Below are positions 3,779-20,276 of a DNA stretch of 20,276 nucleotides, in pieces. Made by a program: the position numbers and the translations under genes. Position 1 is the stretch's first letter. Each line of letters starts with the position of its first letter. The notes below the pieces were generated by a model. The model was not told the DNA's origin, ran no database searches, and saw only the letters and a program-made list of their open reading frames with translations. The DNA is from a virus, in UHGV virus genome UHGV-1757948. The stretch is one strand, 5' to 3'.

Positions 3779-3800
3779 TAAAAAAACAGGAGGACAGTAT

Positions 3801-3908
3801 ATGACATTGACAACATTGAACTTTTCCAAGACCGGAGGCTTGTGGCATGCGGAATGGACACATGGCGGTGAGGGAATATTACAGATAGACGGTGAGCCGG
3901 AACAGTAA
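3801..3908 (+). CDS. Small hypothetical protein (35 aa)
   Basis: An ATG preceded by a canonical SD (cAGGAGGacagtatATG) lies in the gap between the two tail-fibre genes. The ORF is too short for the 60-aa track and has no recognisable motif. Confidence 0.35.
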   Translation: MTLTTLNFSKTGGLWHAEWTHGGEGILQIDGEPEQ

Positions 3909-3924
3909 AGAAAGGAGACAGACC

Positions 3925-4578
3925 ATGAGACGTATAAGAATAGGAAACGACATCATTCTGCGCATAAGGCTTACACGCCGTGGCGGTGCAGAGAACCTCG
4001 AGGGAAAGAAAATAGGTCTTATGCTGCGCAACATTCTCGGCAGTGTGAGCCTTCTTGTAGTACAGTCAGGAGGGGAGCTGATAGCAGGATGGCAGGGCAC
4101 ACAGCAGCAGTGGACAGGTGCGTATACAGTGACACTCACAGAGGATTGGGGCGAGAACAACCGCAACACCGTGGATGAGGCATGCGCCTTCGAGCTTGTG
4201 TCAATAAGCAGCGACGAGGGTGTGGAGACCGGCACCGTGAACATCGAGCTTGACATGGACATCAGCGTGCCGGGCAACGGTCTGTCCGCCTATGAGATAG
4301 CCGTGCTGCACGGCTTTGAGGGCACAGAAGAAGAATGGCTGGAGAGTTTAAAGCCCGACACGAGTAATTTTGTGACAACCGAACAAGTAGCGGAAGACTA
4401 TCAGCCAAAGGGAGATTATGTTACAGAAGCACCTAAGGATGGGAAAAACTATGTACGGAAAGATGGAAGCTGGACTGAGTTTGCAGGAAGTGGAAAAGCT
4501 AATGCCTTTTTTTCGAATAATATCCTTAAATTTGAGAGCGGAGGAGCACAATTTAACAACAACATATTAATAATTTGA
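3925..4578 (+). CDS. Phage tail-fibre protein (BppU-like N-terminal motif; C-terminal YQPKGDY repeats)
   Basis: The start ATG at 3925 has an SD (aAAGGAGacagaccATG); the track's 3892 start lacks an RBS. It contains GNGLSAYEIAVLHGFEGTEEEWLESLK, the characteristic SAYEIAV-GF-GTE-EWL-SLKG motif of Gram-positive phage tail-fibre/baseplate proteins. A sharp GC drop at ~4340 occurs inside the gene. Confidence 0.7.
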   Translation: MRRIRIGNDIILRIRLTRRGGAENLEGKKIGLMLRNILGSVSLLVVQSGGELIAGWQGTQQQWTGAYTVTLTEDWGENNRNTVDEACAFELVSISSDEGVETGTVNIELDMDISVPGNGLSAYEIAVLHGFEGTEEEWLESLKPDTSNFVTTEQVAEDYQPKGDYVTEAPKDGKNYVRKDGSWTEFAGSGKANAFFSNNILKFESGGAQFNNNILII

Positions 4579-4580
4579 TT

Positions 4581-5315
4581 ATGTCAGAAAAAATTAGCCA
4601 AATTCAGATTAACGCCGACGTCAGAGATATAGAAGACGCGCAGGCATTACACAAAGGTGATAGTTTAGGCACAATAAATGGACAGTCTTTTAATGAAGGT
4701 AATGACTTAAACATTGAAGTTGGTACCAATGATTACAATGCCCTTAAAAACAAGCCACAAATAAACGGACATGAGTTGTCTGGGAATAAATCAGCAAAAG
4801 ATTTAGGCTTACAAGAAGCAGGTGACTATGTAACTCCCGAAGATATACCCGATGTGAGCGAACTGGCAACAAAGACAGAATTGGCAGAAGGACTGGAAGG
4901 CAAGCAGCCAAAGGGTGATTATGCCACAAAGGCAGAAATACCAGATGTGAGTGGATTTATTACCTCTTCACAAGCGGAAGAAAAATATCAGCCGAAAGGA
5001 ACTTATGTCACCACGACTGAACTATCTAAAAAGGCAGATAAAATCGCAACCGAAAATGTAGCCGAAACTACAAAGGAATTGCAACCGAACAAGTATTACA
5101 TATTTGGCGAAGTTGCCACACTTACCATAACTCTTGCAGCAGGAGAAGAAAATGTCCTTGCTGAATACATGTTTGAGTTTACAAGCGGCACAACTCCAAC
5201 AATATTGTCACTGCCCGAGGACGTTAAATGGATAGGTGAAAGCACGATTGAGGCAAGCAAGACATATCAAGTGAGCATCGTCAATAATATAGCAGTCATG
5301 GGAGGTGCAGCATGA
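4581..5315 (+). CDS. Phage tail-fibre repeat protein
   Basis: The ATG at 4581 lies just after the stop of the preceding gene. The protein has repeated YxPKGDYVT..IPDVS motifs (E.YQPKGDY / KQPKGDYATKAEIPDVS / KYQPKGTYVTTTEL) shared with the C-terminus of the preceding protein. The coding sequence is AT-rich. Confidence 0.6.
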   Translation: MSEKISQIQINADVRDIEDAQALHKGDSLGTINGQSFNEGNDLNIEVGTNDYNALKNKPQINGHELSGNKSAKDLGLQEAGDYVTPEDIPDVSELATKTELAEGLEGKQPKGDYATKAEIPDVSGFITSSQAEEKYQPKGTYVTTTELSKKADKIATENVAETTKELQPNKYYIFGEVATLTITLAAGEENVLAEYMFEFTSGTTPTILSLPEDVKWIGESTIEASKTYQVSIVNNIAVMGGAA

Positions 5316-6001
5316 GCATATACAGACGCAGGCTTATGATAGCCAACACACTTAAAAAGAGTGACAGCAACATAAATTATCCTGGACTTATTGCAGCATG
5401 GTCGGCAGCAGGAAAGAGCAATGACGATGCTGATAGAAACGTGTTGCACGATTTGACGGGTAATGGGCTTGACATTACGCTGAACGGCTTTGCGTTCAAT
5501 ACAGAAGGAAGTGGCTATGGACATCCCGAATACCCCGATGCTCTTGTCTTTGACGGAGTGGATGATTACGGTATTAATGAGGAAATGCCGATATTGACTG
5601 ATTATACGGTTATTGTTAAGAGAGAAATATTTAGTGGCGGATTATATTCTCATGTAATCGGAAAACGTACAGGCTCTATACCGGGAGCTTTTTGGTTTGA
5701 AAGAGGTAAAGGAGATACTCATAGCTTTGGAATGGCTAATTCAATCAATATATTAAATGAAAGTATATCTTGGCAGTCCACGACAAGCTATAACGGGACA
5801 CCTATAGAAAAAGGTGAAGCTGAGGATATTCATGAATTAACGATAGGTGTAGCAAGCAAAACATATCCAGATTTTAGGGGTATGGCTTTCTACTCCGCCT
5901 ACCTCTTTGACCGCTCATTGGGTGAGCAGGAGATAAAGTCATTTATTAGAAAGTATATAGACGCAGACTATCTGTTACCGAGTGAACAAACAACAGAATA
6001 A
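5312..6001 (+). CDS. Putative receptor-binding protein with a concanavalin-A/LamG-like lectin fold
   Basis: The ATG overlaps the upstream stop (ATGA) and is preceded by GGAGG. The beta-rich composition and the pattern (LVFDGVDDYG...TVIVKRE...GAFWFERGKGDTHSFGM...TIGVASKTYPDFRGMAFYSAYLFDRSL) are typical of jelly-roll lectin domains at the distal end of tail fibres. This assignment is inferred from composition and pattern only. Confidence 0.45.
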   Translation: MSIYRRRLMIANTLKKSDSNINYPGLIAAWSAAGKSNDDADRNVLHDLTGNGLDITLNGFAFNTEGSGYGHPEYPDALVFDGVDDYGINEEMPILTDYTVIVKREIFSGGLYSHVIGKRTGSIPGAFWFERGKGDTHSFGMANSINILNESISWQSTTSYNGTPIEKGEAEDIHELTIGVASKTYPDFRGMAFYSAYLFDRSLGEQEIKSFIRKYIDADYLLPSEQTTE

Positions 6002-6006
6002 AGAAT

Positions 6007-6663
6007 ATGAGATTTATTATAGCAACAATAGCACAAGCAAAGGCGCACGGAATTGAGATTATATCGACAATGCGCCAATCAGTGGATAAGACACAAGTAG
6101 TGTTCCACGAAGAATATGTAAAGAACATTGACGAATTTAATGCCTTAAAGAGGTATGAATTTGATGATGCTGAATTTACAGACCTTATGGCAAGTGAAGC
6201 ATGGACACACGGAGAAGATTATGTGCAGCCAAATGAGGACTTTGCAAAGGTATTAGCCATGCAGATATTGACAGCAGACACAAAGGCGCAGATAAACACC
6301 ATGTCGCTGTCTAACAACGAGGCTCTGAAAGTTAAGGAGTTTTATCCCGAATGGAAAGAAGGAATTGACGTCAACAAAGGCGAAAAGTACAACTGTGACG
6401 ATGACCTTTGGGAAGCACTTACAACGCATAAGACGCAGGCGAATTGGCGTCCGTCTTTGGAAACCGCATCTATATGGAAACATATTGACGAGGAACATGA
6501 GGGCACAGAGGACGACCCGATACCATACGCACCGCCTATGGAGTTGTTCAACGGTAAATATTACACGCAAGACGAGGTAAAATACAGGTGTACCCGTGAC
6601 AGCGGAATACCTTTGTCACAGAACCTGAGTGAACTTGTGGGATTATATGTGGAACTTGTTTAA
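6007..6663 (+). CDS. Hypothetical protein (acidic, tail-fibre-associated; function unknown)
   Basis: A 218-aa ORF with coding-like composition, on the same strand and in the same AT-rich cassette as the preceding tail genes. Confidence 0.5.
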   Translation: MRFIIATIAQAKAHGIEIISTMRQSVDKTQVVFHEEYVKNIDEFNALKRYEFDDAEFTDLMASEAWTHGEDYVQPNEDFAKVLAMQILTADTKAQINTMSLSNNEALKVKEFYPEWKEGIDVNKGEKYNCDDDLWEALTTHKTQANWRPSLETASIWKHIDEEHEGTEDDPIPYAPPMELFNGKYYTQDEVKYRCTRDSGIPLSQNLSELVGLYVELV

Positions 6664-6680
6664 TTTAAAAACCAAAGACT

Positions 6681-6944
6681 ATGAAGGAAAAAGTTATCAG
6701 ATTCGTGACAAACAGATGGTTCGGCTTCGTGGCAGGACTGGTAATCGCAATGCTGTACATGTGGCAGGAACAGAGCCTCGGCAGCGTCAACGCGTGGATA
6801 ATGGGAATCATCACACCTATGCTCTTCGGAGCGTTCGCCGAGGTGGTGAGACATGTCACCACGGAGGACACGTACAAGTGGAAGAACCTGCTGTGGTGGC
6901 TCGCGGGAGCTGTCATTGGAGTAGTGGCGATGCTTGTGGTTTGA
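6681..6944 (+). CDS. Holin-like small membrane protein (3 predicted TM segments)
   Basis: An 87-aa protein with three hydrophobic stretches (WFGFVAGLVIAMLYMW; AWIMGIITPMLFGAFA; LLWWLAGAVIGVVAMLVV) and charged termini. It lies immediately upstream of a second small membrane protein and the amidase. Confidence 0.5.
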   Translation: MKEKVIRFVTNRWFGFVAGLVIAMLYMWQEQSLGSVNAWIMGIITPMLFGAFAEVVRHVTTEDTYKWKNLLWWLAGAVIGVVAMLVV

Positions 6945-6956
6945 TTCCCGGCATCC

Positions 6957-6983
6957 AGGGCAGGGACTCATATGCCCTGCCCT
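6957..6983 (+). promoter_or_regulatory. GC-rich hairpin (9-bp stem AGGGCAGGG/CCCTGCCCT, 9-nt loop) between the two holin-like genes
   Basis: The inverted repeat is seen directly in the sequence. There is no clean U-tract downstream, so it may be an attenuator or processing element rather than an intrinsic terminator. Confidence 0.3.
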
Positions 6984-7026
6984 ATCATTTGACTTGATGT
7001 ATGTACGAATAAAAAAACAAGGGAGA

Positions 7027-7260
7027 ATGAACAAGATTATAATGTGGTTTAAGACAAGCAACCGATGGAAGCATCTGCTTGGCGGTCTGATTATCGGTAT
7101 GGGAGCGGATGATATATACTGTGCGGCATACGCAGGCATAGGCGTTGCGGCAGCCCTTGAACTGAAAGACAGGCAATGGGGCGGCAAATGGGACTGGACA
7201 GACTTCGGGCTGACAACAGCCGGAACAGTTGTGGGACAATGCATAAGGATGATGATATGA
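7027..7260 (+). CDS. Small membrane protein (second holin/antiholin candidate)
   Basis: The start is placed at MNKIIMWFK, which has a partial SD (aAGGGAGaATG); the track ORF begins at 6934 but has no RBS. Two hydrophobic segments are present (LLGGLIIGMGA; IYCAAYAGIGVAAAL). The stop overlaps the next start (ATGA). Confidence 0.45.
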   Translation: MNKIIMWFKTSNRWKHLLGGLIIGMGADDIYCAAYAGIGVAAALELKDRQWGGKWDWTDFGLTTAGTVVGQCIRMMI

Positions 7261-7865
7261 ACGAGGTACAAAGCACATTGGAGGTCGCAAAAGGCATAAG
7301 CGACTATGGGATAATGATAGTCATCTGCGCGGTGTTCCTGCTGCTCGCCTCAGGTCTGATGATTGCGTGTTTCCGCTGGTTCAAATCAGCGATAAGCAAC
7401 ATAATATCCTACACTGACGAGCTGCGCGAGCTTAACGGAAAGCTGGAAAACAACAACCACGTCATGGTGACGATAGCGGAGGGACTGATGCCTGAGACAC
7501 AACTGCGGATAAAGAACATATCCGGAGCGTTCTTTGACCTTGCGGTGGAGAAAGTATGCAGACTCCTGAAGAAAATAAGGGAGGAGAACCATATAGCCGA
7601 CAAGGAAAGGACAAAGGCTAAGATACGCACCCTGCTGAGCAACATGTATGAGGACAGGAACAGCAAGTTCGACAATTTCCATTACCGTGGGAAAAAGCTC
7701 TCGGAGTACTGCAATCCGGAATGGACAGAATGGGTGGCGAAAGTAATAGAGGGAGAGCTGTACAATGAGAACGGTGCGAACAACGGAAGAGCCTACACCA
7801 ACGTCAGCGCAGTATATGACAATATAAAATTGGACTTTTATCACAGAATGACAGACCAGATATGA
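7257..7865 (+). CDS. Signal-anchored (single N-terminal TM) protein of the lysis cassette; function unknown
   Basis: The start ATG at 7257 overlaps the upstream stop (ATGA), whereas the track start at 7176 overlaps the previous gene by 85 nt. There is one TM segment (IMIVICAVFLLLASGLMIACF) followed by a soluble, charged, helical domain. Confidence 0.5.
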   Translation: MNEVQSTLEVAKGISDYGIMIVICAVFLLLASGLMIACFRWFKSAISNIISYTDELRELNGKLENNNHVMVTIAEGLMPETQLRIKNISGAFFDLAVEKVCRLLKKIREENHIADKERTKAKIRTLLSNMYEDRNSKFDNFHYRGKKLSEYCNPEWTEWVAKVIEGELYNENGANNGRAYTNVSAVYDNIKLDFYHRMTDQI

Positions 7866-7895
7866 CGATAAACGCATTTTACAACATTATAAATC

Positions 7896-8489
7896 ATGGA
7901 AAAGTTTAAAGTTATACTTGATGCGGGACACGGAAGGGACACCGCAGGGAAACGTTCGCCTGACGGACGCCTGCTCGAATACGCATACGCCCGTGAGATT
8001 GCAGTGCGTCTTGAAAGGGAACTCAAGGCACGTGGATATGACGCGCAGCGCATTGTGCCCGAGGAAAACGACATCTGCCTGAAAGAGCGGTGCGAAAGGG
8101 CAAACAGAATTTATGCCGCGACAGGAAAGAAAGCGATACTTGTCTCAATACACTGTAACGCGGCTGGTGCCGACGGCAAATGGCATGACGCCAGAGGATG
8201 GTCGGCTTATGTCTCGCGCAACGCTTCAAAGAAGAGCAAAGAGCTCGCCTGCCGTCTGATTGACGCGGCAGAGACACAAGGACTGAAAGTCCGAAGATAC
8301 TCACAGGATGAGCCATATTGGACACAGAATCTCGCAATATGCCGTGACACAAATTGTCCCGCAGTCCTGACTGAAAACCTTTTTCAGGACAACCGGGAGG
8401 ACGTGGACTATCTGCTGAGCGAGAAAGGCAAGCGAACCATTGTGGAGCTGCACGTGGAAGGCATCATGGCGTACTTGGGGAAAGTGTGA
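7896..8489 (+). CDS. N-acetylmuramoyl-L-alanine amidase (Amidase_3/CwlA-type endolysin)
   Basis: It carries the diagnostic Amidase_3 motifs: ILDAGHG.DTAGKRS, E..YA..IA, SIHCNAAG and LTENLFQDN.ED.DYL. It follows the holin-like genes. Confidence 0.85.
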   Translation: MEKFKVILDAGHGRDTAGKRSPDGRLLEYAYAREIAVRLERELKARGYDAQRIVPEENDICLKERCERANRIYAATGKKAILVSIHCNAAGADGKWHDARGWSAYVSRNASKKSKELACRLIDAAETQGLKVRRYSQDEPYWTQNLAICRDTNCPAVLTENLFQDNREDVDYLLSEKGKRTIVELHVEGIMAYLGKV

Positions 8490-8515
8490 GCTCGTTTCCA
8501 AAATGGAAATAACTG

Positions 8516-8544
8516 ACGACAGTTGCAAATTCCGCAACCGTCGT
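8516..8544 (+). terminator. Imperfect hairpin downstream of the amidase gene (possible terminator without a U-tract)
   Basis: ACGACAGTTGC-aaattcc-GCAACCGTCGT forms an 11-bp stem with one mismatch, ~25 nt after the amidase stop. No T-run follows, so the assignment is weak. Confidence 0.25.
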
Positions 8545-8647
8545 AAAGGCGTTCTTTGACATTGTGGGTTGCCGTTAAAAATACAATATTTTCGAAAAAT
8601 TATATACAATTATTTTGGGAAATTATATATCTTTGCACAATATAAGA

Positions 8648-8669
8648 AGCCCTTACGGCAATAAGGGCT
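8648..8669 (+). promoter_or_regulatory. Hairpin AGCCCTTA-cggcaa-TAAGGGCT immediately 5' of the ATG at 8673, inside an AT-rich 180-bp intergenic region
   Basis: A perfect 8-bp inverted repeat ends 3 nt before the start codon and would occlude the translation-initiation region. The surrounding region (8490-8672) is AT-rich and promoter-like (TATATACAAT, TATCTTTG). Confidence 0.3.
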
Positions 8670-8672
8670 GAA

Positions 8673-9302
8673 ATGACAGACGGTGTGCCCGTCTTAAATT
8701 TAAATTATATGGCAAAGATAAATAATAATTTTGAGAAACGAAAACGCATCACGAAAAATGAAGCGTTGGAACTGCTAAAAGATTGTTATGAGGACATCTT
8801 CAAGGCGTATTACGCAGGTCTGGAAAATTACAATGAAGAAATAAATATGACCATACCTGAAGCAAGGACAAGGCTTGTAGGTCCTTTGCTTAACGCAAAA
8901 ATAACAGAGAGTTTCATTCTCACATTTCCCGAGAACTGGAACAAAGGCAAATACGGAAGGATAATATTCAGATGGAACGGTGTGCTCATGCTCATCAAGA
9001 AATTGAACAAGAATGACAAGCCGTCTTACATTCCGACAATACTTTCAGATTCGATTGTCAACCAATACCAATTACCGCTTTTCCAAGGCGATGAAGGCAA
9101 GGAAGAGCCGATATTGATTTTCGGATATACAAAGGACGGTTTCGGGCAGCTCGTAAACCCGAGAATTGTCTTGTATGACGATGGGGTTCAATGGACTGCC
9201 TATATGGAAGACGGTGTAAATATGCCGACTGCCAATACAGACACGCAGGAGATTATTGTCCGCCTGAAAAAGAAAGAGACAGGAGAAAAGAAGGCAGAAT
9301 AA
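8673..9302 (+). CDS. Hypothetical protein (209 aa, low GC, no SD; alternative start at M13 = 8709); unknown partner of the HTH-ImmA regulator
   Basis: A long ORF with coding-like composition on the same strand as, and 52 nt upstream of, the HTH-ImmA gene. No recognisable motif was found. Confidence 0.5.
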   Translation: MTDGVPVLNLNYMAKINNNFEKRKRITKNEALELLKDCYEDIFKAYYAGLENYNEEINMTIPEARTRLVGPLLNAKITESFILTFPENWNKGKYGRIIFRWNGVLMLIKKLNKNDKPSYIPTILSDSIVNQYQLPLFQGDEGKEEPILIFGYTKDGFGQLVNPRIVLYDDGVQWTAYMEDGVNMPTANTDTQEIIVRLKKKETGEKKAE

Positions 9303-9354
9303 CAGCAGGGCACACCGTCTGTTTTCAACAAACGACCTATAAAAGCAACGTCTT

Positions 9355-10410
9355 ATGAAATGTGAGCAGCTAACATTCGCAAGGGAATACAGGGGATTTA
9401 CGCAAACCGCACTCGCGGCAAAAGTCAAAGGGCTATCGCAATCCAACCTGTCAAAATATGAAAAGGGGTTTGGCGGGCTGTCAGACAACATGCTTAGTTT
9501 GATTATGTCCACGCTTGATTTTCCGATGAAATTCCTTGACATGAATATTGTGAACAAGGTTGACAGCAAGCATTACAGGAAAAAGGCAACCATAACCGTA
9601 AAGACACGCAACGAGATAGACAGGACAATATCCCTGATTGCGTATTGTTTTGATTGGCTTAGTGAATTTGTCGAGATACCTGACTATTCATTTGGATACT
9701 ACGACATGGACAACGGCATAAGCCCGGAGGAACTTGCCGGGCACATAAGGAACAAATACAGGCTCGGCATGTCGCCTATATCCGATATTTGCAATTTCCT
9801 TGAGCGCAATGGGGTATTCATTTACATGTGGGACAGTCCTAACGACGAGTTTGACGGGGTATCCCTGATAACTGACGCAGGCAATCATCTTATCATTGTG
9901 AACAGGAACAGAAGCAACGACAGGGTAAGGTTTACGCTTGCACATGAGCTGGGACACATACTGATGCACGAGTGCCCAAGTTTCCCGGTATTCAGCATTA
10001 GAGACAAGGAGAAAGAGGCGAACGCTTTTGCATCAGAGTTCCTTCTCCCCTCCCAGGCTGTCAGAAACGCCTTGCACAATGTCAGGCTCGGACAGTTCCC
10101 TGAGCTGAAACGGTATTGGCTTGTTTCCATGGCATCACTTTTGGAAAAGGCAAAAAACATAAACGCCATTGCAAGTGAGAAGTACAAGTCTATGAGAATG
10201 GAGTTCAGCAGACGCCATTGGAATAAGAAAGAACCTTACGAAGTGCCTATTGACAGCCCTACCGTCTTTGAGCAGGCATATAGGCTGGTATCGGACACAT
10301 TGGGGTATTCAATCAGCATGATTTCGGAAAGCACAGGCTTGCCCGAGGATGTCTTGATAAAGATATTCGGCAAATCTGCGAGGATAATATCATTAAAGCC
10401 ACTAATATAA
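9355..10410 (+). CDS. XRE-family HTH fused to an ImmA/IrrE-family (COG2856) zinc metallopeptidase
   Basis: The N-terminus has an HTH_XRE signature (FTQTALAAKVKGLSQSNLSKYEKG). The central region has the HEXXH zinc motif in ImmA-like context (FTLAHELGHILMHE). Confidence 0.85.
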   Translation: MKCEQLTFAREYRGFTQTALAAKVKGLSQSNLSKYEKGFGGLSDNMLSLIMSTLDFPMKFLDMNIVNKVDSKHYRKKATITVKTRNEIDRTISLIAYCFDWLSEFVEIPDYSFGYYDMDNGISPEELAGHIRNKYRLGMSPISDICNFLERNGVFIYMWDSPNDEFDGVSLITDAGNHLIIVNRNRSNDRVRFTLAHELGHILMHECPSFPVFSIRDKEKEANAFASEFLLPSQAVRNALHNVRLGQFPELKRYWLVSMASLLEKAKNINAIASEKYKSMRMEFSRRHWNKKEPYEVPIDSPTVFEQAYRLVSDTLGYSISMISESTGLPEDVLIKIFGKSARIISLKPLI

Positions 10411-10436
10411 CAATTATCTATTTTGATACAACACAG

Positions 10437-10472
10437 GCGGTGACCCACATATCAAGGGTTGCCGCTTTTTGT
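10437..10472 (+). terminator. Rho-independent terminator after the HTH-ImmA gene
   Basis: GCGGTGACCC-acatatcaa-GGGTTGCCGC gives a 10-bp stem (two G·U pairs) followed by TTTTTGTTT. Confidence 0.5.
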
Positions 10473-10492
10473 TTAATAAAAAATGAAAGAAC

Positions 10493-11002
10493 ATGGGAAG
10501 ATTTAAAGGATTGCTTGTGGTAGTATCGGTGTTGTTGACCGCATCATTATGCGTCAACATACTCCAGTGCAGTAATGCCGGAAAGAAAACAACGAATCAG
10601 GACACAGTACGGACTACATATATAGACACCATTCCGTTCTTGAATCCTGTACCCAAAGACAGTACGGTGATACGGTATGTTACGGAGACGTTGCCCGTGA
10701 CTTGCCGCAAAGACACGATATACGAAGAGAAGGGCGGGAATACAGGCGACAGCGTCAAGGTGACACTGCCTATAACTTCCAAAGTCTATAAGGACAGTAC
10801 CTATACCGCATACGTGAGCGGATTCCGCGCGAATCTTGACAGTATATTTGTATATCCGAGACACGAGACTGTAACTGTCACAAGGTACAAGGAAAGTCCG
10901 CGCCTTGGCGTCGGTATTGCCGCAGGTTACGGTATAGGGAAAGACATGAAACCGACACCTTTCATAGGAATATCCGTATATTATAGGCTTTGGCAGTGGT
11001 AG
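10493..11002 (+). CDS. Secreted lipoprotein (signal peptide with lipobox LTASLC); candidate superinfection-exclusion or surface protein
   Basis: The N-terminus (MGRFKGLLVVVSVLLTASLC) fits a signal peptide plus L-[AS]-[GAS]-C lipobox. The mature part is Y/T/K-rich and beta-like. The overlapping antisense ORF 10547..11137 is Cys/Arg-rich junk. Confidence 0.55.
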   Translation: MGRFKGLLVVVSVLLTASLCVNILQCSNAGKKTTNQDTVRTTYIDTIPFLNPVPKDSTVIRYVTETLPVTCRKDTIYEEKGGNTGDSVKVTLPITSKVYKDSTYTAYVSGFRANLDSIFVYPRHETVTVTRYKESPRLGVGIAAGYGIGKDMKPTPFIGISVYYRLWQW

Positions 11003-11208: not shown

Positions 11209-11599
11209 CAGATTCCTCCTTTTCTGAGTTTATAGATACGAACAATCTCTCGTAGTCATCACAACTGATTTCAAAGCAGTTCTGACTTATTACTCCGTCA
11301 GAATCCCCGAAAACGTAAAACGGGGTATACGGACTGTATGTCTTCAGGACACCCACATCCTTTTTGTTGTCCTGCCTGTGTCTGATATAGAACCAGTAAT
11401 GAGGTCTTTTGTAACCGACACACCATAGCAGCATAAGGACAAACAACAAGAAGAAAAAACAGAAAAACCATTTCGGCAGGAAAACGTCAATCAGAAAGAA
11501 TGTAACCCATGCCGTTACCATTACGGCGAAAGCCTCAAAAGATGTCTTGTAATCAAAATTTTTCATTTTCATAATATGTTTAATATTTCTTATTCCCAT
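11189..11599 (-). CDS. Small membrane protein (2 TM); alternative start at MKMKNFD (11572)
   Basis: Two hydrophobic helices (AFAVMVTAWVTFFLIDVF; FFCFFFLLFVLMLLWCVGY) and an acidic C-terminus. The coding sequence is AT-rich and overlaps the neighbouring genes at both ends. Confidence 0.45.
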   Translation of the reverse strand: MGIRNIKHIMKMKNFDYKTSFEAFAVMVTAWVTFFLIDVFLPKWFFCFFFLLFVLMLLWCVGYKRPHYWFYIRHRQDNKKDVGVLKTYSPYTPFYVFGDSDGVISQNCFEISCDDYERLFVSINSEKEESDDTDAK

Positions 11600-12134
11600 G
11601 CTTAAATGGGCGGAGTCTGTTATAGCGCATCTTCTGCTCGACGTAGAAGTCGATGTCGATATCGTTTTGGTGGCAGAATAAGATAATGAGGGCTACAGTG
11701 AGATTGATTTTTTCGCAAAGGGCTTCCTTATATAAACAAAGTCCCTCACAAAGATGGTACATGACGACGGGGAATGGCTCATTAATGAATTTTGCGTCTG
11801 AAGCAAGAAACTCGTCAACGTAATGCAGGGATATTCCGCGCAGTGCAGCCAAGTCCAAACAGCGTATGATGATGTCGCTAAGTTCATCCTCAACCGAGTT
11901 TTTGACGTGTGTCTCAAATTCATACTTAAATACAACGTCGTCATCGGCGTATGTTCCAAGTAATGCTTTGAAAAGGTCAATGTCCGTGTGCCTGTCCTTG
12001 CGGTCTGCCTGTACAGCTTCAGATATCTCAGTAATGATAAGCATCAAATAAGTTTCGTCAGGCAGTTCTTCATCGTGCCATCCGTGCGTCTTTGCGGTCT
12101 CAAAAACTGCTTTTGATAATTTAGTCAAATCCAT
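11580..12134 (-). CDS. Hypothetical protein, tentatively MazG-like all-alpha NTP pyrophosphohydrolase
   Basis: It has MazG/dimeric-dUTPase-like acidic helix motifs (ITEISEAVQADRKD ... ELSDIIIRCLDLAALRGISL). The assignment is pattern-based only. Confidence 0.35.
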   Translation of the reverse strand: MDLTKLSKAVFETAKTHGWHDEELPDETYLMLIITEISEAVQADRKDRHTDIDLFKALLGTYADDDVVFKYEFETHVKNSVEDELSDIIIRCLDLAALRGISLHYVDEFLASDAKFINEPFPVVMYHLCEGLCLYKEALCEKINLTVALIILFCHQNDIDIDFYVEQKMRYNRLRPFKHGNKKY

Positions 12135-13903: not shown

Positions 13904-14068
13904 TTATCTTGTGATTTTAGAGGAAATTTTCCTTGTATTTCCTTTGTTTTCCTTTGCCAAACACTCATTGCCACATCTTCTGCCCACGTCGTACTTATCG
14001 CACCATCCGTCTCCGTAGAAGCCTTCGTTAATGAAGTGGATACATGAGCCGCAGTGTCTTGCTTTCAT
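13904..14068 (-). CDS. Small Cys-rich zinc-ribbon-like protein (54 aa), translationally coupled to the PP-loop enzyme gene
   Basis: The translation is MKARHCGSCIHFINEGFYGDGWCDKYDVGRRCGNECLAKENKGNTRKISSKITR. Its ATG overlaps the upstream stop as ATGA at 14065-14068. It is absent from the 60-aa ORF track. Confidence 0.35.
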   Translation of the reverse strand: MKARHCGSCIHFINEGFYGDGWCDKYDVGRRCGNECLAKENKGNTRKISSKITR

Positions 14069-14982
14069 TTTTCGTCGTCTTTAAATTCAAATTTCTGTTG
14101 CAGGAACTCGTCAGCGTAGAACTGCTTGTAGCTCTTGTCGCTTATCCACCACCTAAAGCCTGTTTCAGCGTCGTTGAAATTGTGGTCGATATATCCGTTG
14201 TCTATCAGCCATTGGATTGTCTTTATCCAATTGCGTTTGACGTGCGGCCAGCGTTTAGCATCTTCCTTCTTTATCCGTGCGTTCGACATAGGGCAACAGA
14301 TGCAGCCAATGCGTGTATAACCCTCGTCGTAGAGTTCGCAGTGTGGTATGCCGTTCATGTTAAGGAACTCCCACACGTCGCGCTCCGTCCAATAGATTAT
14401 GGGCGATACAAGGATTTTGTCCTTACCGCCGACACACGCAACCATGCTCTCCTCATGTTCGCTCCATTGGTCAAAGGTTTCCTCATTGCGCTTGCCCTTT
14501 ATCTCTGTGGATATTTCCTCACGTTTTGCACGCCGTGCGCTTTCTTCTTTTCTCACACCGATAAGTGTCACCTTGCCAACGCCTGACGTTTCCTTGAACT
14601 CGGCACAACACCAACGCAAAGTCCTTGTCGGCAAGATGTGCTTTTTCTTCGCCATTTCGTAAATGCTCATCCGTGGTTTGATTAGCTCCACATCGGGGTA
14701 TTGCGTCTTGACGAAGCGGATGACTTCGGGCGGGTCTATGCTCGTAAGGTTCATGTGAGCCTTGAAGCGGACACCGGCCAGCTTTGCGACATGGTAGAGG
14801 CATTGGCTGTCCTTGCCGCCACTGAACGCAAGGTAAAAGCCGTTTTCGGGGTCGAGGCGCAACGCCATTTTCTCCGACTTCCGCAAAAGTTCGACGGAGT
14901 GTTCCAGCTTCCTTGCAAGCGGACGGCTTACCTTTGACATTACGGTGTCGTGGTCAAGCAGTATTATTTCACACGCTTTCAT
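14065..14982 (-). CDS. PAPS-reductase family / PP-loop ATPase protein (DndC/IbrA/CysH-like; tRNA-thiolase-like alternative not excluded)
   Basis: It has the PP-loop FSGGKDS, the RWCCAEFK motif and a C-terminal GCICCP Cys cluster. Its ATG at 14982 is coupled (ATGA) to the upstream small ORF. Confidence 0.8.
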   Translation of the reverse strand: MKACEIILLDHDTVMSKVSRPLARKLEHSVELLRKSEKMALRLDPENGFYLAFSGGKDSQCLYHVAKLAGVRFKAHMNLTSIDPPEVIRFVKTQYPDVELIKPRMSIYEMAKKKHILPTRTLRWCCAEFKETSGVGKVTLIGVRKEESARRAKREEISTEIKGKRNEETFDQWSEHEESMVACVGGKDKILVSPIIYWTERDVWEFLNMNGIPHCELYDEGYTRIGCICCPMSNARIKKEDAKRWPHVKRNWIKTIQWLIDNGYIDHNFNDAETGFRWWISDKSYKQFYADEFLQQKFEFKDDEK

Positions 14983-15107
14983 TTTGCCTTGTCTTTAAGT
15001 TTGAATATAAATTCCATCAGTTGTTTGTTCTGCTGGCGGTACCTGTCAACCTCGGCTTGCAGGAAGTCAATCTCGTTGTGGTACGCCTCACGCTCAAAGT
15101 CAGTCAT
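14979..15107 (-). CDS. Small hypothetical coiled-coil protein (42 aa)
   Basis: The translation is MTDFEREAYHNEIDFLQAEVDRYRQQNKQLMEFIFKLKDKAK. It ends in an ATGA overlap with the PP-loop gene start and has no SD. Confidence 0.25.
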   Translation of the reverse strand: MTDFEREAYHNEIDFLQAEVDRYRQQNKQLMEFIFKLKDKAK

Positions 15108-15113
15108 CGTTCA

Positions 15114-15260
15114 CTAATCGTCTACAATGGCTTTTGCTAAACCGAAGAGAAGGATATATATTCCTAACATGAGCAGTACCCATGGGAAACTTGTCAACAT
15201 CCATATAGAGGCTGCCACGCAAAGTGCACCGGCATGGATGATTAGTTCAGTTCTGTTCAT
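15114..15260 (-). CDS. Small membrane protein (48 aa)
   Basis: The translation is MNRTELIIHAGALCVAASIWMLTSFPWVLLMLGIYILLFGLAKAIVDD. Its ATG overlaps the radical-SAM gene stop as ATGA. Confidence 0.3.
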   Translation of the reverse strand: MNRTELIIHAGALCVAASIWMLTSFPWVLLMLGIYILLFGLAKAIVDD

Positions 15261-16162
15261 TGCTTCATATTTTTAAGTTTGTAACTATTCTCATTAAGCC
15301 ACTTTTGGAAATACCATAACTGACCGCATCCGCCACCTATATCGTCTTGCCCTGCCGGGTTAAATACTCTCGTATTAAAACCTACGTCATTCATCTTTGA
15401 ATTAAAGTCACGGATTAAGTCAAGTTGTCGCTGTATTGATGAATGTACACTTTCATCCTTTTCGCAAATAACAGACAAAGTGACCTCCCATATATCAGGG
15501 TTAAATAATTCAGAGAGCCTCATAGCATCTTCCATATCATTATTCCCGACATGTACGCAATAATTAAAGAAAGGCTTTCTTCCGACATAAGAAGCCCAAA
15601 ACTCACCCGTAGAAGCTATTTGCCGAAGTGTTGACGTATTCGTTGCTATAAGTTTCTTCCTTTTTTCATCTGTACTTTCATGTACTGAAAATTGAAGACC
15701 TACTTTATCTATTTCTTTCGATAGTGCAATAAAATCAGACATGTATAAATACATCATGTGAGGGGCAGAAGTGCTTACAAGAAGTTGTGCGTTTGGATAT
15801 TTCACATGTAGACTTTCTATTGCAGGCTGCAATGCCGAGTAGTTGTAAAAAGGCTCTCCCATGCTCATAAACATAATTTGGAACTTTTTAATGTCATCAG
15901 TGCGGCAATCAATAGTAGATAATGCCCCATCAATCTGTTGTATTATTTCGTCAGTAGAAAGATTTCTGACAAAAAATTTGCCTGTTCCGCAGAAAGAACA
16001 TCCAACTGGACAACCGCTTTGAACCGAACAACATATAACTGTCCTTTTTTTGTATTCTCCATATCTATAAAGAACAGTTTCAGCAATAGCATTTGGCTTG
16101 TCCCACTCAAACACGAATTTCTTTACATTCGTATCACTTGATTCAAATACTTTTGTTTTCAT
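15257..16162 (-). CDS. RlmN/Cfr-family radical SAM methyltransferase homologue, minimal form lacking the N-terminal accessory domain
   Basis: The radical-SAM CX3CX2C is in RlmN context: ICCSVQSGCPVGCSFCGTG versus RlmN LCVSSQVGCALECKFC, including the upstream catalytic Cys. It also has FMSMGEPFYN (versus MGMGEPLLN), LVSTSA and the C-terminal catalytic motif DIGGGCGQL (versus DIDAACGQL). The gene is strongly AT-rich (~38% GC) relative to its neighbours. Confidence 0.85.
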   Translation of the reverse strand: MKTKVFESSDTNVKKFVFEWDKPNAIAETVLYRYGEYKKRTVICCSVQSGCPVGCSFCGTGKFFVRNLSTDEIIQQIDGALSTIDCRTDDIKKFQIMFMSMGEPFYNYSALQPAIESLHVKYPNAQLLVSTSAPHMMYLYMSDFIALSKEIDKVGLQFSVHESTDEKRKKLIATNTSTLRQIASTGEFWASYVGRKPFFNYCVHVGNNDMEDAMRLSELFNPDIWEVTLSVICEKDESVHSSIQRQLDLIRDFNSKMNDVGFNTRVFNPAGQDDIGGGCGQLWYFQKWLNENSYKLKNMKQ

Positions 16163-16368
16163 TTGCCGTATGTTTTTGTTTTCTTGGGTTTGTAACTATC
16201 GGTTTCTTCGTCCCACTCCACGCAGTCGGGGCAGTAGAGTTTGCCGTCGATTTCTTCCCAATCGCACATCTTCGCCATATACCTTGCCATACCTTCACTA
16301 AATTCATAGCCATGCTTACTTCCGCACCCGTCGCACACGGCTTGGTACATCGTCACTTTCTGTTTCAT
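16159..16368 (-). CDS. Small zinc-finger protein (CDGC...CPDC)
   Basis: A 69-aa protein with two CxxC pairs. Its stop overlaps the radical-SAM gene start (ATGA). Confidence 0.5.
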   Translation of the reverse strand: MKQKVTMYQAVCDGCGSKHGYEFSEGMARYMAKMCDWEEIDGKLYCPDCVEWDEETDSYKPKKTKTYGK

Positions 16369-16370
16369 AA

Positions 16371-16855: not shown

Positions 16856-17673
16856 AGCAGATCCTTTGCTTCTTCAATCAGGTCACCAAATGTGTCTAAG
16901 AACTGGTCGCGGACTTCGGGGGTGGGGAAAGCCAATATCCGGCTCACCGTCCAATAAGAGTTCTTTTCTTTCTTATTTGCTTTGTAACTAATGCAATATT
17001 TCATTTTATCATCCGTCCAATACGGCTTCCACCCCAATTGCTTCCACCAGGCGTTGCGGCAGACGAGAAGCTGGCAGAGGGCGAGCATGGGCTTGCCGAG
17101 ACCTTGCGGCAACATGTTTCTGTCGCTATCACCAAACAGACGTCCGTCATCGGACAATTCGCTTATACTGCATTTATAAACTTCGCTATCTTCTTCTATC
17201 AATTCCACGTCATTGATGCTACACAGGCATTTCAGCCACGTCTTGGGCAACCCTTTCTTCTTCTCTTTCAGCACGATGTTGCCTCGTTCGTCCAGGTGGT
17301 CGAACTCCCAGCCGTCGGGGACTGTAATTGTCTTTTCGTTTGTTTCCATATCTTCTTTGTTTTGTTGTTTAACTTCGATGTCTACGGTGTTGTTGACTGC
17401 GTTGTAGTATGCGAACGGTTCTTTGGACAGGACAACAGGGAATTTCACTCCTGCATACCGCTGCACAATGTGGTCGTAAAGAGGGTAAGGGTCGCCGACG
17501 GGTTCGAGCTTCTTGCATTTCGCTTTCACCCAACAATCTCTATTTCCATAGAAACTTGCACAATTTAAATCTTTAAATGATGCACAATCTTTGCAATAAT
17601 CATACATATCATCTTTCACGCACTGGTACCACTCTCCGTTGTGCTCAAATATCTCTCCTATCTTCCGTTCCAT
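16852..17673 (-). CDS. Hypothetical protein with a Cys-rich N-terminus (273 aa)
   Basis: CKDCASFKDLNCASFYGNRDCWVKAKC cluster near the N-terminus. The start follows the upstream stop by 2 nt (TAGctATG). Confidence 0.55.
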   Translation of the reverse strand: MERKIGEIFEHNGEWYQCVKDDMYDYCKDCASFKDLNCASFYGNRDCWVKAKCKKLEPVGDPYPLYDHIVQRYAGVKFPVVLSKEPFAYYNAVNNTVDIEVKQQNKEDMETNEKTITVPDGWEFDHLDERGNIVLKEKKKGLPKTWLKCLCSINDVELIEEDSEVYKCSISELSDDGRLFGDSDRNMLPQGLGKPMLALCQLLVCRNAWWKQLGWKPYWTDDKMKYCISYKANKKEKNSYWTVSRILAFPTPEVRDQFLDTFGDLIEEAKDLL

Positions 17674-19687: not shown

Positions 19688-19870
19688 TCATTTGTTACGC
19701 AACTGTATGAAGCCGTCGGCTTCGTATTTTTTCAGTTCGGCAAGTCCGTCATCCGTAACGGTGACGATATTCTCTCCGTTTACCGTCATGCCTTCTACGA
19801 TGCCGAACCGCTGCCGGATATTGTCTATGATGCGGGCGTTCTCCGTCACCCAGTAGATTGTAATTCTCAT
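19688..19870 (-). CDS. Small hypothetical protein (60 aa; start at MRITIYW)
   Basis: The ATG at 19870 is preceded by AGGAGtcaatATG. The longer track ORF (start 19978) would overlap the methyltransferase gene and lacks an RBS. Confidence 0.4.
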   Translation of the reverse strand: MRITIYWVTENARIIDNIRQRFGIVEGMTVNGENIVTVTDDGLAELKKYEADGFIQLRNK

Positions 19871-19958
19871 ATTGACTCCTGTTCTTCGTTTTCTACTTGC
19901 GCTATCGCGCGGAATATCTCGTAAACAACCTGTGGCACCATTGCGTTGCCCAACGCCT

Positions 19959-20276
19959 TTATGGATTCTGCCCGCCATCGAGGAAAGGTGATACCAGCCA
20001 GTCTGCCGGGAAACCCATCATCTCCTGTACAAACAAGGGATTGAGTCGGGAAGTCGCGCCATCGGCTTGCGGGCAGTTCTTCATAATTTCCGCCACAAGC
20101 CCGTGCCTGTTCTTCTGTGACGGTGGGAATGTGGAGTTTTTCCCGTTGGTCGCCTCCGGTGTCGGAAGCAGTCCGTGGAAATCCATGTAATCCATCAGAC
20201 CGTTCGGTCTTGTCTCCCCGTTCGCCCTGCTGTGGAACGTGTCGCCGCCCGCCGCCTTCAAATCCTTTACCCTCCC
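19959..20276 (-). CDS. DNA methyltransferase, C-terminal fragment (phage Dcm-like tail); the gene continues beyond the window
   Basis: The reading frame is open to the window edge. LLPTPEATNGKN and SRLNPLFVQEMMGFPADW match the LLPTPxAxDG / NPxFVEWLMGFPxGW motifs found at the C-termini of phage C5-cytosine DNA methyltransferases. Confidence 0.55.
   Translation of the reverse strand, partial: GRVKDLKAAGGDTFHSRANGETRPNGLMDYMDFHGLLPTPEATNGKNSTFPPSQKNRHGLVAEIMKNCPQADGATSRLNPLFVQEMMGFPADWLVSPFLDGGQNP

Follow-up and report, generated by a model that had tools for sequence, protein, structure and literature searches.

The six minus-strand genes at positions 13,904 to 16,368 of the window, by which we mean the whole stretch of 20,276 nucleotides that was analysed, are best viewed as mutually independent, exchangeable passengers in a densely packed operon, that is, as ordinary phage mosaicism, and we put the probability of this reading at about 0.75. 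Two of the genes appear to encode nucleic-acid enzymes, a radical-SAM protein (rSAM) and a PP-loop protein of the PAPS-reductase family (PAPS), which would not need each other, the former being part of a two-gene block with a small zinc-ribbon-like gene (Zn69) and the latter belonging to the phage backbone. Both are new members of already known families, and the most interesting single part of the region is the truncated RlmN-like radical-SAM enzyme.

Operon layout and junctions

A preliminary description of this DNA had proposed six reading frames on the minus strand, all of which are found in the ORF listing of the window; its characterisation of the small proteins is also reasonable.

16159 to 16368, minus strand: Zn69, a Cys-rich ORF of 69 aa, zinc-ribbon-like (CxxC...CxxC)
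15257 to 16162, minus strand: rSAM, 301 aa, an N-terminally truncated RlmN/Cfr-type class A radical-SAM methyl synthase
15114 to 15260, minus strand: tm48, 48 aa, hydrophobic, a predicted single-pass membrane peptide
14979 to 15107, minus strand: cc42, 42 aa, a helical or coiled-coil peptide
14065 to 14982, minus strand: PAPS, 305 aa, a stand-alone PAPS-reductase-family PP-loop ATP pyrophosphatase
13904 to 14068, minus strand: Zn54, 54 aa with 5 Cys, following PAPS and joined to it by an ATGA overlap

Independent gene callers (JGI, ENA, Logan) recover these reading frames in further assemblies of this phage, the 42-aa ORF being called in the JGI record only.

The ATGA stop/start overlaps at 16159-16162, 15257-15260, 14979-14982 and 14065-14068 are all present, while the junction between tm48 and cc42 is a 6-nt gap with no overlap. 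These overlaps had been taken to imply an obligate 1:1 co-production of the encoded proteins. This does not hold, as ATGA is the default junction across the operon. It occurs at 9 of the 18 junctions on the minus strand, 4 of 5 inside the six-gene set and 5 of 13 outside it (at 12931, 13188, 13559, 16649 and 16852), a difference with a Fisher exact p of 0.29, and three further operon junctions are 2-nt gaps. Since the overlaps are found operon-wide, they do not delimit a cassette; they reflect general operon compaction and mark no cassette boundary.

The region would then belong to a compact early/accessory operon in a tailed gut phage of Bacteroidales type, with unrelated accessory genes probably lying end to end and ATGA re-initiation junctions as the default. 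The opposite strand carries a tail fibre, an endolysin and an HTH-M78 regulator. Two genes outside the six-gene set bear on the discussion below:

11580 to 12134, minus strand: MazG-like nucleotide pyrophosphatase of the same operon (phrog_9236, E 2.5e-47)
19867 to 20274, minus strand: probable 3' part of a C5 DNA methyltransferase, the gene extending past the window end

The second of these, whose translation contains ...SIKALGNAMVPQV..., had been cited as a methyltransferase at the window end, and it is probably the C-terminus of one. It resembles the C-terminus of a PF00145 protein of the phage L073 (38% over 42 aa, blastp E 2e-4), which is weak evidence, and it has no Pfam match.

Gene content in related phages

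We now turn to the proposal of the preliminary description that the radical-SAM protein, the PP-loop enzyme and the small proteins form one co-translated nucleic-acid modification module, installing a new modification for anti-restriction or anti-tRNase purposes. The genes are indeed adjacent with ATGA overlaps, and both superfamilies include nucleic-acid-modifying enzymes. However, the sister phages do not treat the six genes as one unit: they swap rSAM out or insert genes between cc42 and PAPS. In L043, which is ~95% identical to the window in nucleotide blocks, Zn69 (98% identity), the TM protein (41%), cc42 (90%), PAPS (92%) and Zn54 (87%) are all kept, and four unrelated small ORFs replace rSAM. 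The same genome has 915 nt, with ORFs of 190 and 96 aa, between cc42 and the PAPS gene. The blastn blocks bracket the exchanged segment, with window positions 17515 to 16181 corresponding to 2550 to 3890 of L043 and 15107 to 14990 to 4964 to 5081:

15108 to 16180, minus strand: mosaic segment (rSAM and tm48), occupied in L043 by the four unrelated small ORFs and the diverged TM protein

In a second genome, L068, the PAPS protein is 100% identical and rSAM is missing. Because sister phages thus keep an intact PAPS while rSAM is swapped, the six genes do not form a unit, and this presence/absence polymorphism largely refutes the single-module model.

The small genes follow the backbone. The homologues of tm48 in L043 and L068 directly follow different cargo, and tm48, which has no family match in Pfam or PHROGs, is a backbone gene whose presence does not depend on rSAM. 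Likewise, cc42 is a backbone gene; it shows a DivIC-like similarity, at sub-threshold level only. Zn54 has the same position in L043. In L005 a homologue (40% identical) does not sit next to the PAPS gene, and 17 other PAPS loci have no Zn54 downstream of PAPS. The membrane, coiled-coil and Zn54 peptides would accordingly be described as backbone passengers.

The relatives of rSAM give the complementary picture. Its closest ones, in L070 and L073 (81-82% identity), lack any PAPS gene within 4 kb, and within the six-gene cluster these otherwise unrelated phages share only two genes with the window:

15256 to 16369, minus strand: shared Zn69 and rSAM block (blastn against L070 and L073)

The block has 75% nucleotide identity over 1115-1119 nt, and outside it the window has only a few short matches (47-173 nt) to these phages elsewhere in the operon. 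Because its ends coincide exactly with the start of Zn69 and the stop of rSAM, the pair appears from these alignments to be a two-gene mobile unit. The Zn69 proteins of L071 and L073 are 75-76% identical to that of the window and directly precede rSAM there too, while no rSAM follows Zn69 in L043; beyond these phages, Zn69 has weak matches to DUF7569 (E 1.2e-3) and phrog_17873 (E 1.3e-5).

Also in its composition rSAM is foreign. It has a GC of 0.366 and a GC3 of 0.311, against a GC3 of 0.63 for PAPS and 0.45-0.71 for the neighbouring genes, and its deviation from the flank GC, -0.10, is the most negative among 21 rSAM loci. Taken with the presence/absence polymorphism and a shared block that comprises Zn69 and rSAM only, this GC3 makes rSAM essentially the solitary recent insertion that the preliminary description had itself named as speaking against a joint module.

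The preliminary description had further asked whether the neighbourhood of the two enzymes recurs in other phages. It does so rarely. An HMM search places a PAPS-family ORF within 6 kb of rSAM in 3 of 58 other rSAM loci (L005, L022 and L077), and precomputed Pfam annotation adds one further lineage (L100/L101), such that a PAPS-family gene is observed on the same strand, 0.3-4 kb from rSAM, in four other lineages. The two enzymes are therefore not, in the strict sense, never linked elsewhere, which favours the single-module model. But order and spacing differ between the linked loci, and the rSAM neighbours are otherwise unconserved. The linked PAPS proteins are deeply divergent, falling into four subfamilies that are mutually 22-33% identical (with the exception of L022 and L077, at 70%) while the rSAMs are 59-82% identical, and there is therefore no co-evolution of PAPS with rSAM. 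Seen from the other side, none of 19 other PAPS loci has rSAM nearby, compared with 8 of 19 that have a MazG-like gene within 6 kb. One more point in favour of a module is the viral contig L059, where a PAPS homologue runs into the start of another radical-SAM gene, and the two superfamilies may have some looser functional connection. RlmN and Cfr, on the other hand, are known to work as single polypeptides. With all of this considered, we judge a single co-translated module to be very improbable.

The radical-SAM enzyme and its substrate

The assignment of rSAM as RlmN/Cfr-like is borne out by profile, structure-database and fold comparisons. The protein matches the RlmN profile TIGR00048 with E 5.9e-28 over positions 73-342 of 355, RlmN 6fz6 with E 2e-18 and Cfr 9p0p with E 1e-11 in the PDB, and the phage family phrog_24834 with E 5.4e-16. 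Its scores lie below the curated NCBIfam cut-offs, with 97.8 bits against the equivalog cut-off of 290 for TIGR00048 and 70-77 bits against 468-550 for the Cfr models. The AF2 model (pLDDT 85, pTM 0.86) has the partial TIM barrel with beta-sheet extension, and the best eight Foldseek matches all belong to RlmN-family chains (TM(query) of 0.65-0.71), the RlmN structures 6fz6, 3rfa and 5hr7 leading with TM 0.66-0.71.

The catalytic residues are in place. The cluster motif C51-PVG-C55-SF-C58 (CxxxCxxC) aligns to those of RlmN and Cfr, C44/C45, at -7/-6 from C51, align with the resolving cysteine (E. coli C118), and C279, in DDIGGGCGQL, aligns with the methyl-carrying cysteine (E. coli C355, C-terminal CGQL). 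All five mechanistic cysteines are thus present, as is the MGEP motif, and in the alignment C44/C45, C51-x3-C55-x2-C58 and C279 are conserved across the phage family. What is absent is the N-terminal HhH2 domain, which has a role in RNA binding in Cfr and RlmN (PMC13001441). The match to TIGR00048 begins at profile position 73 of 355, the alignments to solved RlmN/Cfr structures begin at their residue ~71-109, and rSAM residues 5-11 pair with residues 67-79 of canonical RlmN representatives.

One way to account for the missing domain would be a two-subunit enzyme, in which Zn69 supplies the nucleic-acid binding or specificity in place of HhH2. Three different phage backbones have the two genes side by side, overlapping by 4 nt, and the exact ends of the shared DNA block would fit such a pairing. 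Nevertheless, we consider it distinctly unlikely, as L043 retains its almost unchanged Zn69 without rSAM, no Zn69-like ORF is found beside rSAM in 40 loci (tblastn, E<=1e-3), the upstream rSAM neighbours differ in the lineages inspected, and none of the family representatives inspected has a Zn-ribbon fusion. A 38%-identical Zn-ribbon homologue also occurs in a PAPS locus that lacks rSAM (L045).

The enzyme would use the ping-pong mechanism of RlmN and Cfr. SAM would methylate one cysteine, the 5'-dA radical would activate the methyl-Cys, the methylene would join adenine C2 (C8 being less likely), and the second cysteine would resolve the adduct. RlmN is a dual-specificity C2-methyl synthase of 23S rRNA A2503 and tRNA A37, and Cfr acts on C8 of A2503. 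By homology, the most likely target of rSAM is an RNA adenine, tRNA A37-like or 23S A2503-like. It should be pointed out that the inference of an RNA target is weakened by the missing RNA-binding domain and, among the relatives, by Nudix/HD fusions and NAD-gene neighbours.

These same features raise another option, namely that the truncated enzyme has a substrate other than RNA, either an adenine nucleotide (dATP/ATP, ADPR or NAD-related) or the phage DNA, with a role in nucleotide-pool or NAD counter-defence metabolism or in DNA hypermodification. The fused domains in question are NUDIX (P0250, P0339) and dNTPase-like HD+HD_assoc (P0324). Genes for NAD salvage or reconstitution occur within 5 kb of rSAM in ~8 lineages and directly adjoin it in L003, L020, L080 and L088, with the rSAM of L020 located between Adps-like and Namat-like genes; metallophosphoesterase and PNK-phosphatase genes are found among the neighbours as well, and DNA methyltransferases upstream in L100. 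However, tRNA arrays and a Pth2-like gene also neighbour rSAM in other lineages, the large-phage regions mix tRNA, NAD and nucleotide genes so that adjacency may be non-specific, and other rSAM relatives show no NAD or nucleotide genes. To our knowledge, all characterised RlmN/Cfr enzymes methylate RNA, and we know of no C-methyl-adenine DNA or nucleotide in phages. A non-RNA target is hence rather unlikely, and an RNA adenine is retained as the most likely one. Concerning 7-deazaguanine DNA modification, neither rSAM nor the PAPS protein matches a QueC or QueE model in Pfam or NCBIfam.

The PAPS-family protein and comparison with known systems

The PP-loop protein is a member of the PAPS-reductase family, as had been proposed, with matches to PF01507 (E 3.3e-22, 79.8 bits against a gathering cut-off of 22.5) and to phrog_424 (E 4e-39, positions 134-363 of 460). 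Its motifs are SGGKD (54-58), of which S54-G-G-K-D58 is invariant in the alignment, WCC (124-126) and C227-x-x-C230. The 120 closest homologues all contain PF01507 alone. The PDB matches are weak (FAD synthase, CysH and CysD only), and the predicted structure model has a pLDDT of 46.

More specific identities were considered. The suggested kinship with TtcA-type tRNA thiolases was not confirmed, with PF01171 at 13.2 bits against a cut-off of 27 and a match just around the PP-loop; TilS gives E 0.014. Identity as a DndC, SspD or BrxP sulfurtransferase was rejected on scores that are sub-cut-off (15 bits against 290 for DndC TIGR03183; E 8e-3 for SspD) or cover the generic PAPS domain only (BrxP, E 2.3e-16, positions 134-352 of 779), and on partner genes: no cysteine desulfurase, DndD/E, SspB/C or PglZ/BrxC was found in the operon proteins scanned with Pfam, PHROGs and PADLOC. 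The ParB-associated phage PAPS reductase, the full-length form of phrog_424, was rejected as well, the profile match being partial and no ParB_N match being found in the PAPS protein or the 10 neighbours scanned. In L100/L101, a ParB_N gene accompanies other PAPS genes.

Another option is that the gene is a true CysH, a sulfur-assimilation auxiliary metabolic gene boosting host cysteine synthesis. The source annotation reads 'phosphoadenosine phosphosulfate reductase' and the PHROG category is 'auxiliary metabolic gene', and phage cysH is listed in reviews as an unvalidated auxiliary metabolic gene (PMC12713726). Yet the NCBIfam models for CysH, PAPS reductase and APS reductase give 41-50 bits against cut-offs of 154-254 (TIGR00434 49.7 against 165, NF002537 49.4 against 154, TIGR02055 45.9 against 235 and TIGR02057 41.4 against 254). 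The motif ECG(L/I)H, which holds the C-terminal catalytic cysteine of CysH, is absent from the 305-aa sequence and from the alignment consensus, and the neighbours elsewhere are DNA methyltransferases, ASCH, ParB and SSB, with no sulfur genes. A true CysH is therefore extremely improbable. We instead envisage a backbone-encoded, Fe-S-type protein that probably adenylates its substrate for a substitution reaction and, because of the methyltransferase neighbours elsewhere, may act in a DNA-modification or anti-restriction context.

Among known systems, rSAM is closest to RlmN and Cfr in its core, sharing the CxxxCxxC motif, the C118- and C355-equivalent cysteines, MGEP and a superposable predicted fold. 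It differs in lacking the ~65-75 residues of the N-terminal HhH2 domain, in having the extra, family-conserved C202 and C233, and in being phage-borne and horizontally mobile, and its identity to solved RlmNs does not exceed 26%. With phrog_24834, a phage family of unknown function whose short, RlmN-like members come from Salmonella phage Arash, Stenotrophomonas phages ANB28/BUCTxx99, Vibrio T5-like phages and Aeromonas phage Ahp1, it shares 47-51% identity, the length class (~295-310 aa) and the status of a stand-alone gene with unconserved neighbours. These relatives are found mostly in phages of 100-350 kb, often close to tRNA or NAD genes, whereas the window copy is in a small gut phage of ~43-71 kb and is paired with a Zn-ribbon gene.

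The PAPS protein shares the adenine-nucleotide alpha-hydrolase fold signature and the SGGKD PP-loop with phrog_424, BrxP and DndC, and the CC...CxxC motif with DndC and Fe-S APS reductases. Unlike the ParB-fused or ParB-adjacent forms of phrog_424, it has no ParB domain, it corresponds to only the PAPS domain of the 779-position BrxP profile of BREX type 4, and it is not accompanied by the partner genes of the Dnd, Ssp and BREX systems. With CysH and the APS reductases it has in common the PF01507 domain and, as in the Fe-S-type APS reductases, the cysteine pattern, but it is set apart from them by the missing ECGLH catalytic tail, by scores below every curated cut-off and by a genomic context other than sulfur metabolism.

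Gene order and junctions of the proposed cassette

The preliminary description of this phage had tentatively read six consecutive minus-strand ORFs as one co-translated nucleic-acid modification module. All six were found, together with the four ATGA stop/start overlaps (at 16159, 15257, 14979 and 14065, on the minus-strand sequence), and they are as follows:

16159-16368, minus strand: Zn69, Zn-ribbon protein of 69 aa, CxxC...CxxC
15257-16162, minus strand: rSAM, radical-SAM protein of 301 aa
15114-15260, minus strand: tm48, hydrophobic (TM) protein of 48 aa
14979-15107, minus strand: cc42, coiled-coil protein of 42 aa
14065-14982, minus strand: PAPS, PAPS-reductase-like protein of 305 aa
13904-14068, minus strand: Zn54, protein of 54 aa with five Cys

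The junction between the 48-aa and 42-aa ORFs is a 6-nt gap. The same genes are called by independent gene callers in other assemblies of the phage (the window and IMG/VR contig 3300045988_136180 are two assemblies of one phage), and the small ORFs are kept in one sister phage.

The overlaps had been taken to imply obligate co-translation and a 1:1 stoichiometry. However, ATGA packing extends over the whole minus-strand operon (ca 11.2-20.3 kb), where it is found at 9 of 18 junctions, 4 of 5 within the cassette and 5 of 13 outside it (Fisher p = 0.29), and it is therefore no signature of a unit. Three further junctions of the operon have 2-nt gaps, and the genes for YopX, a MazG-like pyrophosphatase and DUF7666, as well as several orphan genes, have junctions of the same type as those in the cassette. 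A 4-nt overlap, the class of overlap seen most often in phage genomes, promotes re-initiation without fixing the stoichiometry. A promoter and terminator scan gave neither an enrichment nor sites dividing the genes. The arrangement is the usual mosaic of tightly packed phage accessory genes, and the six-gene co-translated modification machine, which would be a notable discovery if true, should therefore be dropped.

The convergent plus-strand genes (86-11002) include one for a 1230-aa tail-fibre or host-specificity protein and the following:

7896-8489, plus strand: endolysin
9355-10410, plus strand: HTH + M78-peptidase regulator
10493-11002, plus strand: DUF6808 protein

This gene set is consistent with a temperate-type siphophage. 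No tRNA or Rfam features were found in the whole window, and a megablast of it against isolated phages gave no match; most homologues are from metagenomes of gut and rumen or from bins of the Bacteroidales type. At 19867-20276 (minus strand), two overlapping frames are each open for more than 100 codons, and both have C5-methyltransferase-like C-terminal motifs, LNPLFVQEMMGFPADW in one frame and SIKALGNAMVPQV ca 13 codons later in another. This region, which is not in common with the sister phage L043, could be the 3' end of a frameshifted or recoded methyltransferase.

Mobility of the radical-SAM gene and its linkage to the PAPS gene

We now turn to the near relatives, where the proposed module comes apart. 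The sister phage L043 is ca 95% identical to the window at the nucleotide level in blocks, and the identity breaks precisely around rSAM: where the window has rSAM and the TM gene (16180-15108), L043 has a 41%-identical TM gene and four small, unrelated ORFs, and a 915-nt insert (190-aa and 96-aa ORFs) lies between the coiled-coil gene and PAPS. Zn69 (98%), cc42 (90%), PAPS (92%) and Zn54 (87%) are all kept. The second sister phage, L068, has a PAPS protein that is 100% identical and matches window 15262-12139 at 98.4%, but it is without window 18213-15263, Zn69 and rSAM included.

The closest rSAM relatives (81-82% identical; L070 and L073, contigs of ca 70 kb) are without a PAPS gene within 4 kb. 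The only part of the cluster that they have in common with the window is block 16369-15256, exactly Zn69 plus rSAM, at 75% nucleotide identity; elsewhere in the operon there are a few matches of 47-173 nt. Moreover, rSAM is compositionally foreign in the window, with GC/GC3 of 0.366/0.311 against 0.498/0.627 for PAPS, and its GC lies 0.10 below that of the flanking DNA, further below than at any other of the 21 loci compared. The sister phages and the composition thus show rSAM to be essentially a solitary, recently mobile gene, the situation that the preliminary description itself had named as speaking against a module. The mobile unit is the Zn-ribbon plus rSAM pair. Near-isogenic gut phages with and without the RlmN-like gene constitute a clean natural experiment for RNA/DNA methylation and host range.

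Small proteins of ca 60-75 aa with the pattern WIARD...DWFPDLTW...EPIELV adjoin rSAM or PAPS in different backbones (L043 4116-4301, L070 5079-5282, L044 6918-7145 and L046 1335-1523). A member of this family takes the place of rSAM in L043, and the family seems to be one more accessory gene that shuffles freely. In L096 (6388-7860), a copy of rSAM with 79% identity has an IS605 OrfB/Cas12f-like TnpB gene 0.5 kb downstream; here a mobile element and a mobile gene are neighbours.

For the wider survey, HMMs were built from the retrieved proteins and the neighbourhood was set to 6 kb. A PAPS-family ORF was found that close to rSAM only in L005 and L022 among 40 other viral and isolate-phage rSAM loci, and only in L077 among 18 such loci from genome bins. 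In L005 (6001-8825), three ORFs stand between rSAM (74% identity) and the PAPS-family gene downstream of it (31-32% identical); in order, they encode 66 aa, a protein with a polynucleotide-kinase 3'-phosphatase domain (PF08645, E 4e-21) and a DUF551 protein. The L100/L101 lineage has the order rSAM, two genes, PAPS_reduct, ParB_N, a second PAPS_reduct and terminase, and in L101 this series is interrupted by SSB, VRR-NUC and a transporter.

Recurrence of the neighbourhood, proposed earlier as a check, was thus seen in a few other lineages, but the cases differ in order and spacing, and identity among their PAPS proteins is only 22-33% (four subfamilies), compared to 59-82% among the rSAMs. Seen from the other side, none of 19 other PAPS loci has rSAM nearby by HMM, while a MazG-like gene, serving as internal control, is near PAPS in 8 of 19. 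Clustering of all ORFs around rSAM gave no neighbour or partner conserved outside single phage clades. Given this rare linkage, the variable order, the divergent PAPS partners and the lack of a conserved neighbour, the two enzymes are probably independent cargo that at times lands in the same accessory region, and a real functional link between them is very improbable.

Assignment of the two enzymes

Both superfamily labels of the preliminary description were confirmed. For rSAM, profile matches, mechanistic cysteines and a predicted RlmN fold argue for a class A radical-SAM methyl synthase of the RlmN/Cfr type. It matches RlmN TIGR00048 (E 5.9e-28) and the Cfr models (E ca 1e-20) of NCBIfam, all far under the equivalog cut-offs, as well as phrog_24834, the short RlmN-like phage family (E 5.4e-16), and the solved structures of RlmN (6fz6, E 2e-18) and Cfr (9p0p, E 1e-11). 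From alignments to RlmN/Cfr, the cluster motif is C51/C55/C58, while the positions of the resolving C118 and the methyl-carrying C355 (E. coli RlmN numbering) are taken by C44/C45 and C279 (in DDIGGGCGQL), respectively; all of these are invariant across the phage family. The AF2 model has a pLDDT of 85, and its top eight Foldseek hits are RlmN-family chains with TM(query) of 0.65-0.71.

The N-terminal ca 70 residues of RlmN/Cfr are missing, and the phage protein begins at the beta-sheet extension. In Cfr and RlmN, these residues form the HhH2 domain, which is crucial in RNA binding (PMC13001441). The short family comprises ca 74 clusters at 50% identity (E ≤ 1e-30), and we found no relevant literature on phage RlmN-like enzymes.

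The 305-aa protein is, judged from profiles and motifs, a PP-loop enzyme of the PAPS-reductase family (PF01507, E 3.3e-22; phrog_424, E 4e-39; BrxP PAPS domain, E 2.3e-16). In the alignment, SGGKD, WCC and CxxC are invariant and the ECGLH tail is absent. The protein stays under all curated cut-offs for cysH, APS reductase and DndC, has no ParB domain and does not match PF01171 (TtcA/TilS type), so that the earlier suggestion of a tRNA thiolase is not supported. Family scores, motifs and missing partners led us to reject the QueC/QueE (7-deazaguanine), Dnd/Ssp/BREX, TtcA and true-CysH readings. The AF2 model, from a shallow alignment (at least 77% identity), has a pLDDT of 46, and a PDB profile search gave no more than weak matches to FAD synthase, CysH and CysD. 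Only PP-loop and Fe-S-type motifs are recognisable, and no relevant literature was found on the function of this phage type. Phage 'cysH' genes of this kind are without the CysH catalytic motif and should be left out of counts of sulfur auxiliary metabolic genes.

In close homologues (L047/L048, L057, L058, L050-L055 and L061), an N6/N4 DNA methyltransferase (4-nt overlap) or an ASCH-domain protein lies directly upstream; MetMV has a DNA methylase downstream, and at other loci the neighbours are small, unrelated ORFs. The methyltransferase and ASCH genes point to a setting of DNA or nucleic-acid modification for this PAPS type, in which the enzyme may carry out an adenylation-dependent modification. 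L059 (5585-7668) is the sole instance in which PAPS is coupled to a radical-SAM gene of another type: the PAPS-family ORF, at 46% identity to the window protein, extends 4 nt into the start of a 367-aa radical-SAM ORF (CSFGCDYC, PF04055 E 9.5e-7).

Substrate of the short RlmN-like family

With the full RlmN/Cfr catalytic apparatus present, rSAM would follow ping-pong methyl-synthase chemistry at adenine C2 (or C8). To our knowledge, all members of the family that have been characterised have RNA as their substrate, and an RNA target is therefore the presumed default. Relatives of rSAM lie in or beside tRNA arrays in L002, L016, L018, L030, L040 and L082, and a Pth2-like ORF is directly 3' of rSAM in L018 and L040. 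Counted within 6 kb, tRNA genes are seen in L002, L016, L018, L029, L030, L038, L039, L040 and L082, with up to 23 per array.

The two tRNA-Gln directly after the L016 rSAM, however, carry G37, not A37; they are no RlmN-type substrates and give no specific support. The default is weakened by the missing HhH2 domain and by two further observations. First, some relatives are fused at the C-terminus to NUDIX (P0250, 468 aa, and P0339, 464 aa; 46% and 35% identical to rSAM) or to dGTPase-like HD + HD_assoc domains (P0324, 759 aa, 34%), which hints at a tie to nucleotide metabolism. Second, NAD salvage or reconstitution genes (PRPP-synthetase-like Pribosyltran, NAPRTase/NAMPT-like, NadE, nicotinamidase) lie within 5 kb of the short RlmN-like gene in ca 8 independent lineages (L020 4961-8430, L003 2225-5918, L080 5114-6885, L088 559-3347, L007 8724-12288, L023, L083 and L040). 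In L020, rSAM has the Adps-like gene of a NARP1-like pair on one side and the Namat-like gene on the other, and in L003 (Vibrio phage 496E54-1) it follows such a pair by 91 nt. We found nothing relevant in the literature on a radical-SAM gene in NARP1 operons, and the NARP1 papers checked do not mention one.

Another option is that the short family C-methylates adenine of a nucleotide or an ADP-ribose/NAD-type metabolite, or of phage DNA (counter-defence or DNA hypermodification), the RNA-binding domain having been lost because rRNA/tRNA is no longer the substrate. This would account for the Nudix and HD-dNTPase fusions and for rSAM within or beside NARP1-like NAD-reconstitution operons of several large phages, and the Zn-ribbon partner in the window phage would be the specificity subunit. 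Among the N-terminally extended representatives there is no Zn-ribbon-rSAM fusion, and the extensions are mutually unrelated. We consider this option very unlikely, and RNA remains the default target.

The short RlmN-like family, large and uncharacterised, is the only part that merits follow-up: for these methyl synthases without an RNA-binding domain, the tRNA arrays, NAD-reconstitution genes and Nudix/HD fusions suggest roles in translation takeover or counter-defence. Compared to what is known, both enzymes belong to existing PHROG families and are new members of them in an ordinary mosaic arrangement.
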